Shown: in pieces, positions 44,616-49,074 of the stretch
Layout: every line of letters starts with the position of its first letter
Position numbering within the stretch: position 1 is the first letter of the stretch
Virus record (IMG/VR): IMGVR_UViG_3300032294_002612
Coordinates: 31,732 to 95,731 of that record
Length of the DNA stretch: 64,000 nt
Reading direction: 5' to 3' (one strand)
Source: a virus
Notes under the pieces: generated by a model
Databases searched by the model: none
Told to the model about the DNA's origin: nothing
What the model saw: the letters and a program-made list of their open reading frames with translations, nothing else
Program-made: the position numbers and the translations under genes

Positions 44616-45449
44616 ATGGATAAAAGAAAAAATGGTTGGATTGTGGGCGCTGGTAAACATAATAAAGATTTACATGAAAAAAATTTAACAAATTATTATT
44701 TAAATCCACAATATTGTAATTTTTGTAATAAACAGTTGGAATATGCCCCCAAATTTATTAGGGAAGAGCGAAAATTTTGTAGTAAAACCTGTTCTGCTAA
44801 ATATCATAATAAACTAAGACTTGAGACTTCTTTTTATAAGAAAGGCTTAACTAAAAAATCACAATGTATTATTTGTAAAAAAGAACTTTGTATTAGTAAA
44901 AACGCTTCCCATAAATCTTCCAAATGTCAATCATGTAAAAATTTATTAAAAGCTCCCAAACCCAAAAAAGAAATTAGCTGCTCTATTTGTCAAGTCAATT
45001 TTATTGGAAATAATAGAAAAACTTGTAGTTTTAACTGCGCACAAATAGCAAAACTAAAAGGCGCCAGAAATGGGGGCAAAAAATCTGCTCAATCACAATC
45101 AAGAACCCGAAGAAGTAAAAATGAAATTTATTTTGCAGAATTGTGTATAAAAGAATTTAAGAATGTCGTCGTAAATAAGGCGATATTTAATGGCTGGGAC
45201 GCCGATATTATTTTAATGAAACAGAAAATTGCCATACTTTGGAATGGGGTGTGGCATTATAAAAAAATAACACAAAAACATTCTGTAAAGCAAGTTCAAA
45301 ATCGAGATAAAATTAAAATAAAAGAAATTATAAAACATAAATTTGAACCATATATTATTAAAGATATGGGAAAAGCTAATAAAAATTTTGTTGAAAAAGA
45401 ATTCAATAAATTTTGTATGTATATTAAAGGTAGCGGGAGAGGGAATTGA
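44616..45449 (+). CDS. Homing endonuclease-like protein (Zn-finger repeats + PD-(D/E)xK domain)
   Basis: FCSKTCS and TCSFNCA repeats; WDADIILMKQKIAILWNGVWHY; C-terminus overlaps the tRNA(CAT) 3' end in antisense. Confidence 0.75.
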   Translation: MDKRKNGWIVGAGKHNKDLHEKNLTNYYLNPQYCNFCNKQLEYAPKFIREERKFCSKTCSAKYHNKLRLETSFYKKGLTKKSQCIICKKELCISKNASHKSSKCQSCKNLLKAPKPKKEISCSICQVNFIGNNRKTCSFNCAQIAKLKGARNGGKKSAQSQSRTRRSKNEIYFAELCIKEFKNVVVNKAIFNGWDADIILMKQKIAILWNGVWHYKKITQKHSVKQVQNRDKIKIKEIIKHKFEPYIIKDMGKANKNFVEKEFNKFCMYIKGSGRGN

Positions 45450-45518
45450 ACCCTACGTGGCAATTGTGTTGCCTGAGGCTTATGAAACCCCTGACTTTGT
45501 CCTCTAGTCTATCCCGCA
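45431..45518 (-). tRNA. tRNA with CAT anticodon and long variable arm (Met or Ile2; identity uncertain)
   Basis: D arm GACT/AGTC; GGGGT-TTCATAA-GCCTC; variable arm GGCAA-CACAA-TTGCC; U1-U72 mismatch; A73. Confidence 0.75.
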
Positions 45519-46342: not shown

Positions 46343-46371
46343 TTGACAAAAGAGTAATATAGTTGTAATAT
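46343..46371 (+). promoter_or_regulatory. sigma70-like promoter of tmRNA
   Basis: TTGACA, 17 nt, TAATAT. Confidence 0.65.
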
Positions 46372-46393: not shown

Positions 46394-47092
46394 GGGCGTG
46401 TACTGGTTTCGACATTTGGTTGAAATTAAAAACGCATGTCGAGGTTAATCGATGGCCTCGTAAAAAATCGATTAAAAAACTAAGAGCAGATAACACTGAC
46501 TCAATCTTGGCAGAAGCCGAATATATCTTCAACAACGCTGACCAATTCGTTGGCGCTGAAGAAGAGTATTTGATGGCTGCCTAAGAACCAATGTCTGGAT
46601 CCTATTAAAAGCGTTGGAACTGCAATAGGTTTATGAAGTCCTAACTTACTTATAAAATTCATTGTTAGGTGTTATGCAGAACATTCTCTGCATAGGCAGA
46701 CTGTAAACTCGGTTAGTATCACCAAGTAGCCTAGAGTCTTCGTTACCGTAGGTAGCTGAAATGCTAAAGATACTTAAACATGTAGACTTTTTAATGTAAA
46801 TTAAATGGACAGGGGTTCAACTCAATGGGTTGACTTAGCAGTGATGCTTCGATTAAAACTGGATGAATTGCTGGAAAGCTAAATCGTAAAATATGATATG
46901 CCAATCAGCAGCCAAGCTAAAAATACATTTTTAGAAGGTTCAGAGACTACTGGAGAGGTTAAGTCCTCTTAATAACCAGATTAGCGTCCAGCTCTGATTT
47001 AACCAATCAGATGAAGATATAGTCCACAATTTAGTATTCATATAATGAATATGCTGAGAAATCAGCTTTTTTAAATTGGCCCCTCACGTCCA
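46394..47092 (+). ncRNA. ssrA: tmRNA (intron-containing); tag ADNTDSILAEAEYIFNNADQFVGAEEEYLMAA
   Basis: 5' GGGCGTGTACTGGTTTCGAC; acceptor GGGCGTG/CACGTCC-A with G3-U70; T-arm AGGGG-TTCAACT^CCCCT; tag ORF 46486-46584 ending AA*. Confidence 0.93.
46823..47079 (+). mobile_element. Group I intron in the tmRNA T-loop (257 nt, no internal ORF)
   Basis: P1 TCAACT/GGTTGA with U.G at the 5' splice site; P GAATTGCTGGAAAGC; Q AATCAGCAGCCAAG; R TTCAGAGACTAC; S GAAGATATAGTCC; P3 CTGGATG/CGTCCAG; terminal G. Confidence 0.92.
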
Positions 47093-47667
47093 TCTTTTTT
47101 TATAAGATTAATAAAATCTAACATTTGTTGATGAGAAAGTATTCCTTTAGCTAAATTTATATTACGGCTAACATATTGAATATTTCCTTTAAGATATCCT
47201 TTTGAAGAATCAATTCTATCTACAGACGCCATCTTATAAGAAATTGCTGGATTCGGATTGGTAGACCCAATAGGTAATATTAATTTAATTTTTGTATATG
47301 GGCAAACTCCATGAGTTTCCTCCCATACCTCTTTTAAATCTTCTATTGTTAAATTACATGGTTTTCTATTTGGTCGGTTTAACATTCTCAAAATATATTT
47401 AAATGGGCATTTAGCATCTTTTCTAATATACCCACGATTTAAAATGCCTTCTTTTTGAAATTGAATTGCACGCTCTTTTGCTAAAACTCTTAACTCTGGG
47501 GTATTACGACGACAACCACATCCTTTTGTTCGCCCCCGACGAATATCTTTCCAATTAAATAATCTTAAAGTTCCACAGCTACATTGACATTTTACTTTAT
47601 CATTGGGAAGAACTTCTAATATAGTTAAGAATCCAAATGTTTGACCAATACAATCTTTTCGTTTCAT
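47071..47667 (-). CDS. HNH-type free-standing homing endonuclease overlapping the tmRNA 3' exon and intron end
   Basis: KCQCSCG...KGCGC; CPYTKIKL...ASVDRIDSSKGYLKGNIQYVSRNINLAK; stop codon lies inside the intron. Confidence 0.82.
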   Translation of the reverse strand: MKRKDCIGQTFGFLTILEVLPNDKVKCQCSCGTLRLFNWKDIRRGRTKGCGCRRNTPELRVLAKERAIQFQKEGILNRGYIRKDAKCPFKYILRMLNRPNRKPCNLTIEDLKEVWEETHGVCPYTKIKLILPIGSTNPNPAISYKMASVDRIDSSKGYLKGNIQYVSRNINLAKGILSHQQMLDFINLIKKDGREGPI

Positions 47668-47780: not shown

Positions 47781-48287
47781 ATGCATATTATAGAATATTC
47801 AATTATATTATTTTATTTATTGTGTTTTATTTTAAAATGCCCATTACTTATTAGATATTCGATTATAAAAAAAATATCTAACATTAAAATAATTAAATTT
47901 TTATATAAGATTGGATTATTCATGAATTGGAATATGTTTTGCAAATCTCCAGCAAGACATCATAAAGTTAAATTTATCATAGAATTAAAGAATGGTGAAA
48001 TCTTTATTTATTATTTAGATACAGAAAAAACAAATAATTCTATAAGTGAAATTATACCAGAATTAAATTTAAAACCAAAATCTTTAGCAAGCTTAATTCA
48101 TAATTATTATCACCACGGATTCTTATTAATTGATTATATAGAAGAAATAATTAAACATAAATTTGGTGATAACTTAAAACATTTTGCATCATATTTACAA
48201 ATTTTAAGACCAGACAAGAATAACCCTTTAGAAATGTATACGGGTACGTATTACCCAATTATAGAAAAATCATATGTGGATAATTGA
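47781..48287 (+). CDS. HTTM-partner protein (DUF5819/SdpA-like)
   Basis: N-terminal TM helix, NWNMFCKSP motif; translationally coupled to the HTTM gene. Confidence 0.55.
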   Translation: MHIIEYSIILFYLLCFILKCPLLIRYSIIKKISNIKIIKFLYKIGLFMNWNMFCKSPARHHKVKFIIELKNGEIFIYYLDTEKTNNSISEIIPELNLKPKSLASLIHNYYHHGFLLIDYIEEIIKHKFGDNLKHFASYLQILRPDKNNPLEMYTGTYYPIIEKSYVDN

Positions 48288-49074
48288 GGCAATTAATAAT
48301 TTTTTTTTCCAATATTATATATCTTCAAATTTTATTGGTATATATAGAATAGCTACGATATCTGTAATTTTGGGTTATATTACTTTTATTATTAAAGACA
48401 TCATTAATTTTAGCAAGAAAAATGGTATCGGTGGTTATCACAATAAATATTACTACCCTTTATGTATAATTTTATTCTACTTGTTCGGATTCTTATCCTT
48501 AATTGGTTTCGTAACCCAATTTTCTATTTTACTGTTTTTAATATTTTTTATAATTATACAAAAAAATATGTTCTATATTTTAACTAGTGGTGGAAATGTT
48601 GTTTGTAATATGTTGTTACTATGTTTAGTTTTATGTAAATCTGGCGCGGGATTATCTATAGATAATATTATTTTTAATAACTATGAAGAATATACTTCTG
48701 GGTGGGCTATAAGATTAATTCAAATTACTATATCTTTTGGTTATTTTTTCGCAGGATTAAATAAAATTAAATCTTCCGATTGGAAAAAAGGTATTGCAAT
48801 TTCTAATGCCGTTATATATAGCAACTATGGCAAACAAAAATTGCTTACATTATTTTACCCGAAGACTTTACAATCTAGGCTCATTTGTTATAGCGTAATG
48901 TTTTTTCATTTATTTGCGCCAATATTATTTTGGTGTAATTTGACACAATTATTTGCTATTTCATTTGCAATTTTATCTCATCTTATGATGATGATAACAT
49001 TACGAATTGGACATTTTGGGCCAATAATGATACTTGGGATACTAAGTTTTAGTGCTAATTATTTTCTAAAATAA
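48274..49074 (+). CDS. HTTM-domain membrane protein (SdpB / vitamin K-dependent carboxylase-like)
   Basis: GIYRI, SGGNVV, LSID, RLIQITISFGYFFAGLNKIKSSDWKKG, HLMM...IGHFGPIM. Confidence 0.8.
   Translation: MWIIEAINNFFFQYYISSNFIGIYRIATISVILGYITFIIKDIINFSKKNGIGGYHNKYYYPLCIILFYLFGFLSLIGFVTQFSILLFLIFFIIIQKNMFYILTSGGNVVCNMLLLCLVLCKSGAGLSIDNIIFNNYEEYTSGWAIRLIQITISFGYFFAGLNKIKSSDWKKGIAISNAVIYSNYGKQKLLTLFYPKTLQSRLICYSVMFFHLFAPILFWCNLTQLFAISFAILSHLMMMITLRIGHFGPIMILGILSFSANYFLK

Follow-up and report, generated by a model that had tools for sequence, protein, structure and literature searches.

Why does a phage keep, at the 3' end of its transfer-messenger RNA (tmRNA) gene, a group I intron without any open reading frame (ORF) and, running into this intron from the opposite strand, a gene for an HNH-fold endonuclease? 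The question is raised by a stretch of phage DNA of 64,000 nt, hereafter the window, which comprises bases 31732-95731 of the 166,536-bp IMG/VR record IMGVR_UViG_3300032294_002612, a record with direct terminal repeats that is rated complete. Taken together, the anatomy of the locus, the presence/absence alleles in related phages, the co-occurrence of the two elements, their horizontal spread, the selection acting on both of them and the decay of the HNH gene in some relatives argue for collaborative (trans) homing of a two-part selfish cassette at the 3' end of the phage tmRNA gene, a reading to which we assign a probability of roughly 0.6.

A group I intron splits the phage tmRNA gene

The split tmRNA gene as a whole occupies positions 46394-47092 (+) of the window. 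Exon 1 (46394-46822, +, 429 nt) starts with GGGCGTG, the 5' strand of the acceptor stem, continues with a pseudoknot and the mRNA-like body, and ends with the 5' strand of the T stem, AGGGG, and a complete T loop, TTCAACT, reading ...GGGGTTCAACT. The Rfam covariance model for tmRNA (RF00023) matches positions 46402-46824 with 85.4 bits (gathering score 47), and the tmRNAs of relatives reach 75-116 bits with the same model. Exon 2 (47080-47092, +, CCCCTCACGTCCA) has a length of 13 nt, i.e. the 3' T-stem strand CCCCT, the 3' acceptor strand CACGTCC and the discriminator A, and is identical or covarying in all intron-bearing copies. Once joined, the exons, which are predicted to read ...GGGGTTCAACTCCCCTCACGTCCA after ligation, form a T stem of 5 bp (AGGGG-TTCAACT-CCCCT) and an acceptor stem of 7 bp (GGGCGTG/CACGTCC) with a G3:U70 pair, the mark of alanine acceptors; as read from the sequence, the tRNA-Ala-like domain is present only when the exons are joined.

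Two observations on relatives concern the exons. At acceptor pair 4:69 the window has C-G and the related contigs L008 and L020 have G-C, i.e. the two exons covary across the intron. Moreover, L020, an intron-less relative, reads GGGGTTCAACT / CCCCTCACCTCCACCA, which equals the predicted ligated exons exactly, so that chance is excluded and the exon boundaries are proved at the DNA level; the intron-less allele of another lineage (L128) also equals the predicted product. Shifting both splice sites by 1 nt yields the same product owing to a C/C ambiguity, and the boundary given here thus rests on the rule that a U precedes the 5' splice site (-1U) and a G ends the intron (omegaG).

The ORF-less group I intron itself (46823-47079, +, 257 nt, last base G47079) follows base 7 of the T loop and thus occupies T-loop internucleotide subsite 8. 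The Rfam model Intron_gpI (RF00028) matches positions 46813-47047 with 83.3 bits (gathering score 50) over model positions 1-253, covering the core from P1 to P9, and the other intron copies score 77-84 bits. Helix P1 (46817-46833, +) comprises 6 bp between the exon nucleotides UCAACU (46817-46822) and the internal guide GGUUGA (46828-46833), as derived from the sequence, cmscan and RNAalifold, where it appears as pairs 10-16 with 20-26. At the 5' splice site the -1 nucleotide, U46822, forms a U.G wobble with G46828, and both this wobble and the terminal omegaG are kept in all 7 distinct intron copies. Compensatory double changes affect 7 of the 81 predicted pairs in these 7 copies, located in P2, in a stem of the P5 region and in two hairpins of the P9 region, although the test has modest power as the copies have diverged by just 3-7%. 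With its compensatory pairs the intron looks functional. Its core is about 75% identical over 88 nt to the psbA intron of S-PM2, and its nearest relatives reside in phage protein-coding genes. In a scan of 185,579 species genomes a 22-nt pattern taken from the core was absent from bacterial tmRNA, which is weak evidence against a bacterial source, as an exact match was required; two short contigs from metagenome-assembled genomes matched, neither of them within a tmRNA. An earlier description of this DNA (the preliminary description), made from its letters before any database search, had placed a 257-nt group I intron at the end of the T loop, and the Rfam models, the sequence and the empty allele in L020 bear this out.

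The spliced RNA would depend on the host in two respects. A 3' CCA is encoded neither after exon 2 of the window (GTCCA/TCT, 47093-47095) nor in L008 (CTCCA/TAT), and these alleles would thus depend on the CCA-adding enzyme of the host. The empty alleles L020 (6450-6452, tmRNA strand), L022 and L031 as well as L128 do contain the CCA, which is missing where an HNH gene of the window type abuts the tmRNA gene. Since no SmpB gene was found in the phage genome, host SmpB would be needed, too. ARAGORN reports a tmRNA neither in the window nor in the gene spliced in silico; as it also fails on most uninterrupted relatives that Rfam scores highly, we read this failure as insensitivity of the tool for this tmRNA clade.

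The neighbouring gene encodes a PacI-like HNH-fold protein

Convergent with the tmRNA gene and starting 13 nt beyond the intron lies a free-standing gene (47071-47667, -) for an endonuclease of 198 aa with a PacI-like beta-beta-alpha-metal HNH fold, assigned via PHROG, an AlphaFold (AF2) model and Foldseek. Its last 7 codons and the stop codon (47071-47092) are the complement of exon 2 and of the last 9 intron bases, i.e. exon 2 is spanned completely by the C-terminus ...DGREGPI, with the TAA stop (47071-47073) located inside the intron; the sequence here agrees with the preliminary description, which had reported a minus-strand HNH ORF running through the 13-nt 3' exon and stopping in the intron. 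In the AF2 model the tail residues 194-198 have predicted local distance difference test (pLDDT) scores below 50, L006 uses a different reading frame for the tail (...VDVRG), and the tail of L008 reaches 36 nt into the intron. As the tail is disordered and its frame is not conserved, we regard the overlap as tight packing rather than as a conserved peptide.

The protein matches the endonuclease families 3322, 374, 1035 and 3118 of PHROG (E 1e-16 to 1e-8). It has no match in Pfam, and a profile search of PDB sequences with it yielded noise only. The AF2 model (pLDDT 83) comprises two domains. The N-terminal one is three-stranded and Cys-rich (C27, C29, C31, C50, C52) and forms a module that probably binds zinc and DNA. 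The C-terminal nuclease domain has its best structural match, which is also the top match of Foldseek, in PacI (Z 7.7, 108 residues aligned, 20% identity), an enzyme that reportedly uses a tyrosine in catalysis, followed by Gme HNH (Z 6.7) and by the HNH domains of McrA, Cap5, ZRANB3 and Cas9 (Z 4-5). PacI (PDB 3ldy, 3m7k) has the beta-beta-alpha-metal fold in common with this domain but, unlike the window protein, is a restriction enzyme without the N-terminal CxCxC module. The motif VDRIDSSKGY...N162...N171 contains the invariant residues S148-x-D150-R151-I152...Y158...N162...N171. The ratio of nonsynonymous to synonymous substitution rates (dN/dS) is 0.12-0.17 among the intron-linked copies, indicating purifying selection; by this ratio and by its fold the protein looks functional and is predicted to have nuclease activity. 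We do not claim membership in the family of F-CphI, the endonuclease that accompanies the S-PM2 psbA intron, as the match was marginal (one 27-column motif, hhalign probability 38%).

Alleles and co-occurrence in related phages

A search with the HNH protein gave 48 relatives, the contigs of which were examined, the conserved block encoding the tag, used to scan IMG/VR, gave 19 related tmRNA loci, and a third scan, blind to the HNH gene, used an exact 20-mer from the exon-intron junction. Adjacency of intron and HNH gene recurs in 5 further lineages beyond the window. L008, a contig of 167.7 kb with a different gene neighbourhood, shows the same arrangement with an HNH protein that is 61% identical, and forms a filled/empty pair with L020, which is identical to L023 and L025: where L008 has 913 nt, comprising intron, exon 2 and HNH gene, L020 has 44 nt, with 93.7% identity upstream as far as the final base of exon 1 and 94% identity of the mature tmRNAs.

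Enough downstream sequence was available for 16 of the 19 loci found via the tag pattern; they represent 11 distinct tmRNAs, and intron and HNH gene are absent from all of them. The loci from the junction scan carry a full HNH gene (L033/L041/L045 and L046/L047) or what is left of it: L040, the closest relative of the window with the same downstream genes, has only a C-terminal HNH remnant of 68 aa, L043 has only the last 33 HNH codons, and in L042 the HNH region is cut off by the end of the contig. The introns of L040 and L043 are intact and score 84 bits each (84.1 for L040). A junction match in L044 was rejected as a chance match inside a subtilisin-like protease gene. Among the assessable loci of the junction scan the intron was never found without an HNH gene or HNH remnant. 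Counted by lineage, the intron is present in 8 of the 12 HNH-linked lineages and in 0 of the 11 HNH-less ones, which are lineages that are not phylogenetically independent and comprise two intron types. That the HNH gene can decay while the intron stays is, judged by these alleles, what the life cycle of homing elements would lead one to expect.

The HNH gene, in turn, can be present where the intron is not. In L010, L012, L128 and L131 the 3' ends of intron-less tmRNA genes carry HNH relatives that are 48-63% identical. They are convergent to the tmRNA gene in L012, L131 and L128, in the last case with an overlap of 22 nt in which the HNH stop codon is the antisense of the T-loop bases TCA, and in tandem in L010, 15 nt downstream. 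L010 and the HNH-less L016, whose tmRNAs are 88% identical, differ by the HNH block, and L046 and L128, whose tmRNAs are 93% identical, differ by a clean intron indel of 257 nt with the HNH gene being present in both. Distant HNH kin (40-50% identity in the nuclease domain) abut tmRNA genes in L050, L054, L073, L063, L107 and L089, and other distant kin abut tRNA genes in unrelated IMG/VR phages. As HNH genes stand beside intron-less tmRNAs, the intron cannot be the sole source of self-immunity and other routes must exist.

The T arm varies among the HNH-positive intron-less alleles. L128 (1819-1870) has AGAAG/CTTCT versus AGGGG/CCCCT, i.e. two G-C pairs are replaced by A-T, the seventh T-loop base of L010 (3955-3986) is C, not U, and a single loop base distinguishes L012 from L030. 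In this sparse sample, the substitutions may be changes of the target site that confer immunity.

Horizontal spread and relative ages

Compared with the window copy, the introns are 93-95% identical and the flanks 43-71%, with exon 1 (75-82%) and the HNH genes (61-86%) in between; within the HNH gene, identity peaks in the third closest to the intron. Between tmRNA genes that share only 70-86% of their bases, the intron copies are 93-97% identical, and each intron-bearing tmRNA has a closer intron-less relative; being far more alike than its tmRNAs, the intron has spread horizontally. L006 and L046 share 88% of their HNH residues and 70% of their tmRNA bases, and L046 and L008 share 57% and 86%, respectively. 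Thus, by comparison of the identity matrices, the relatedness of the HNH genes is incongruent with that of the tmRNAs, which points to horizontal transfer of the HNH gene as well.

The intron loops are undiverged despite a synonymous divergence (dS) of 0.47-0.86 in the adjacent HNH genes. Compared with the HNH gene, the intron has thus been exchanged both at later times and more frequently and, judged by these divergences, is much younger. A break close to the intron site, repaired with short co-conversion tracts, would produce such a more homogenised intron.

The preliminary description had suggested that intron and HNH gene spread as one unit and had named their co-occurrence across related phages as a check. 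The co-occurrence is found, as the intron appears only together with the HNH gene or its remnant and the 11 HNH-less relatives lack it. The suggestion of one unit stands in part. The filled/empty pair L008/L020 and the higher conservation of the cassette compared to its flanks identify linked mobile DNA, whereas the HNH genes without intron in four lineages, the indel of the intron alone between L046 and L128 and the much younger age of the intron speak against a single unit.

Related intron/endonuclease arrangements

In L049 (2202-2411; exon 2 CTCCTCGCGTCCACCA) the same T-loop subsite holds another group I intron, which has about 210 nt and is unrelated to the first. Its match has 43 bits, which is below the Rfam threshold, with an E value of 1e-9. 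Here, an HNH gene of the same family (44% identity) follows in tandem on the same strand, 60 nt downstream, and its end overlaps a tRNA-Tyr gene. In L038 (7113-8078, -) a related group I intron lies within a ribonucleotide-reductase-like gene; this intron codes for an endonuclease of 254 aa that has two CxC modules and belongs to the same DRIDSSKGY family, of which it is a classical intron-encoded member. L035 and L039 have two group I introns each.

The crAss-like phage cr118_1 (L135, NC_055872.1) contains an unannotated, circularly permuted two-piece tmRNA gene (1439-2600), the T loop of which (GGCGG-TTCGACT) is split at the same subsite by an intron of about 759 nt (1517-2275). The core of this intron is 69.5% identical to that of the window intron, both introns begin with CAATGGGT, and gp49 (1703-2200), a canonical Pfam HNH gene, is located in antisense orientation inside it. 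Once the intron is removed in silico, ARAGORN calls a permuted tmRNA with the tag GNNVNFFDYTLKVA. Two annotated 'hypothetical' ORFs upstream in cr118_1 may be spurious. Phage cr4_1 gave a blastn match similar to that of cr118_1.

Collaborative homing and alternative explanations

If collaborative homing applies, the intron would splice itself out and join the 429-nt body of the tmRNA to the 13-nt 3' exon, and CCA addition by the host would then result in a working tmRNA. The second part of the cassette would be a free-standing PacI-like HNH homing endonuclease specialised on the 3' ends of phage tmRNA genes. In a mixed infection it would most likely nick or cut the tmRNA genes of related phages near the T loop or the 3' end, and repair from the cassette-bearing genome would copy the intron, which would almost always be co-converted as it is adjacent to the break, and often the HNH gene, too. 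The HNH family would have docked at the 3' ends of phage tmRNA genes first, with the intron invading later. Nuclease activity, cleavage site, self-splicing and the protection given by the intron are those parts of this reading that we infer from the locus and its relatives.

Several points weigh against collaborative homing. No HNH model of Pfam matches the window protein, and the position of the general-base His of the H-N-H motif is occupied by Arg (VDRID), for which reasons we class the protein with PacI-like variants of the HNH fold rather than with the canonical HNH enzymes; its structural matches are middling, with a best Z of 7.7. All relatives are metagenomic contigs, and the exact 20-mer of the junction scan could miss diverged alleles that are intron-positive and HNH-negative. 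Furthermore, four lineages combine the HNH gene with an intron-less tmRNA gene, and an HNH dS of 0.47-1.3 versus an intron divergence of 3-7% implies different histories of the two parts.

Part of this evidence would also be expected if the two elements were independent neighbours, i.e. if the HNH gene homed alone to the 3' flank of tmRNA genes, much as T4 SegB homes without an intron in its tRNA region, and the intron was a self-splicing passenger, dragged along by proximity or moving by other routes. The HNH-only alleles (L010, L012, L128, L131), the pairs that differ by the HNH block alone (L010/L016) or by the intron alone (L046/L128), the far younger intron and the distant HNH kin beside intron-less tmRNA and tRNA genes in many phages all fit such a scheme, which is at odds with an intron that is never found without HNH gene or remnant and is present in 0 of the 11 HNH-less tmRNA relatives. 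Two different introns at one subsite beside the same HNH family likewise count for collaborative homing and against mere neighbours. As passenger transport would still need a nearby break made by the HNH enzyme for the intron to spread, the scheme merges into trans homing, and on its own we consider it the main rival, though rather unlikely.

The locus might, in addition, be a static relic, with an intron-bearing tmRNA gene captured from a bacterial host, an unrelated or dead HNH gene and nothing that is mobile now. Intron-form tmRNA genes are common in bacteria, with subsite 8 being used in 14 Bacteroidota genomes (PMC11915505), and the HNH remnants in L040 and L043 are decayed. However, intron-less alleles exist whose tmRNAs are 93-94% identical to those of intron-bearing ones, the intron is nearly the same across tmRNAs that share only 70-86% of their bases, the HNH gene is under purifying selection, and the kin of the intron core are in phage protein genes, with none in bacterial tmRNA in the pattern scan of the 185,579 genomes, so that a relic is highly improbable. 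We give equally little credence to a job of the HNH protein other than homing, such as a terminase-associated role, an attack on the tmRNA gene of the host or of a competitor, or antisense regulation of tmRNA maturation. Antisense pairing would be possible where the convergent gene overlaps exon 2 and the end of the intron, and the phage, lacking an SmpB gene, relies on that of its host; yet the HNH gene is dispensable, being absent or truncated in close relatives with an intact tmRNA, its position varies from convergent to tandem to intron-internal but is always beside a tmRNA or tRNA gene, and the overlapping tail is not conserved in frame.

The living alleles might even preserve every stage in the birth of a mobile group I intron, here at a non-coding RNA gene, which we put forward as a tentative idea. 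An empty tmRNA gene would be followed by one with an HNH gene docked at its 3' end, and an ORF-less intron would then invade the T-loop target of this very HNH enzyme and serve as immunity. Later, the intron would outlive the decaying HNH gene, and cr118_1, in which a related T-loop intron already contains an HNH gene in antisense orientation, would stand for a further stage.

Relation to known systems

Collaborative homing has been described for the psbA intron of S-PM2 with F-CphI and for the DNA-polymerase intron of T3-like phages with a free-standing HNH endonuclease (Zeng et al. 2009; Bonocora & Shub 2009; reviewed in PMC3984707 and PMC2988022; for F-CphI see PMC6083498). The window locus resembles these systems in the presence/absence polymorphism among related phages, but differs in that the host gene is a non-coding RNA gene (tmRNA) instead of a protein gene, in that the endonuclease gene is convergent with its stop codon within the intron, and in that the enzyme is a PacI-like HNH variant which also occurs without the intron and whose cut at the intron site is a prediction. 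Trans homing is further known from phage T4, where MobE mobilises the nrdB intron with its defunct I-TevIII (PMC2790892). In both cases a free-standing HNH gene lies beside an intron unable to move alone, and the intron would be spread by co-conversion from a nearby break, in agreement with the stronger homogenisation of the intron compared with the HNH gene. Unlike the nrdB intron, the intron of the window has no ORF remnant at all, and its target is the tmRNA gene.

Bacterial tmRNA genes with introns were first reported in Clostridium botulinum and now comprise 883 unique sequences with four T-loop subsites; 4% of the introns hold homing endonuclease genes, which are of LAGLIDADG type and located inside the intron, and subsite 8 is used only in Saprospiraceae, in 14 Bacteroidota genomes (PMC11915505). 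The window intron, like these, is a group I intron of the T-psi-C loop that lacks an ORF and obeys the -1U and omegaG rules, and it shares subsite 8 (numbering of PMC11915505) with the Saprospiraceae introns, a comparison made by position only. Unlike them, it is phage-borne and has an external antisense HNH partner. T4 SegB is a free-standing homing endonuclease of the phage tRNA region (PMC2988022, PMC2330249). Its gene, like the HNH gene, is docked beside tRNA-like genes and variably present among relatives, with preferential inheritance being described for SegB; in contrast to the window protein, SegB belongs to the GIY-YIG enzymes, and its system lacks an intron. Our literature search yielded no account of an intron in a phage tmRNA gene that has an endonuclease as its partner.

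Collaborative homing is the leading model of how mobile introns originate and is based on two examples from phages, each of them in a protein-coding gene; the locus described here would add the same intron/endonuclease partnership in a structural RNA gene. Its natural alleles, i.e. empty site, endonuclease alone, intron with endonuclease, and intron with decayed endonuclease, are ready substrates to ask whether the intron serves as immunity for the neighbouring endonuclease. Moreover, phage tmRNA genes, just like phage tRNA clusters, are a preferred landing place for selfish nucleases, and if the HNH enzyme indeed cuts at TTCAACT/CCCCT, the T loop of tmRNA would be a general phage hotspot for intron/endonuclease partnerships. 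For annotation it is relevant that ARAGORN misses intron-split phage tmRNAs and that spurious small ORFs are called across them.

Tag reading frame and neighbouring features

The tag reading frame of the window tmRNA (46486-46584, +) is an open frame with the putative resume codon GCA, 32 codons (ADNTDSILAEAEYIFNNADQFVGAEEEYLMAA) and a TAA stop codon. The tag ends with YLMAA and thus has a hydrophobic C-terminus of the type ...AA. Relatives retain the peptide, their EYIFNNAD block showing synonymous changes at third codon positions, and ARAGORN calls the equivalent tag in L031. With 32-34 residues the tag of this clade is unusually long, and it is conserved according to the pattern A[ET]DNT..LLAEAEYIFNNAD......LLAA (window, L008, L010, L012, L031); the usual bacterial tmRNA tag has about 10 residues. 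A candidate sigma-70-like promoter (46343-46371, +; TTGACA, 17 nt, TAATAT), which is a pattern match from a consensus scan with 10 of 12 positions, is located 22 nt upstream of the tmRNA 5' end.

Elsewhere in the window, a different Cys-rich ORF of 277 aa (44616-45449, +) without a match in Pfam or PHROG ends antisense to the 3' end of a tRNA gene (45429-45518, -), and nuclease-like genes seem, as a general trait of this genome, to dock at the 3' end of tRNA-like genes. A 724-aa protein of the window had no tblastn match among GenBank phages. An HTTM-domain membrane protein (48274-49074, +; PF05090, E 2.5e-10) is kept beside the cassette in L006, L040 and L043. In L089 a GOLLD RNA (375-759; RF02032, 204.9 bits) is located about 1 kb upstream of the tmRNA gene that is followed by a distant HNH relative. 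Finally, L026 (10050-10170) and L029 (2811-2931) contain matches to the tRNA covariance model that span 121 nt, suggesting a tRNA gene with an insertion of about 50 nt.

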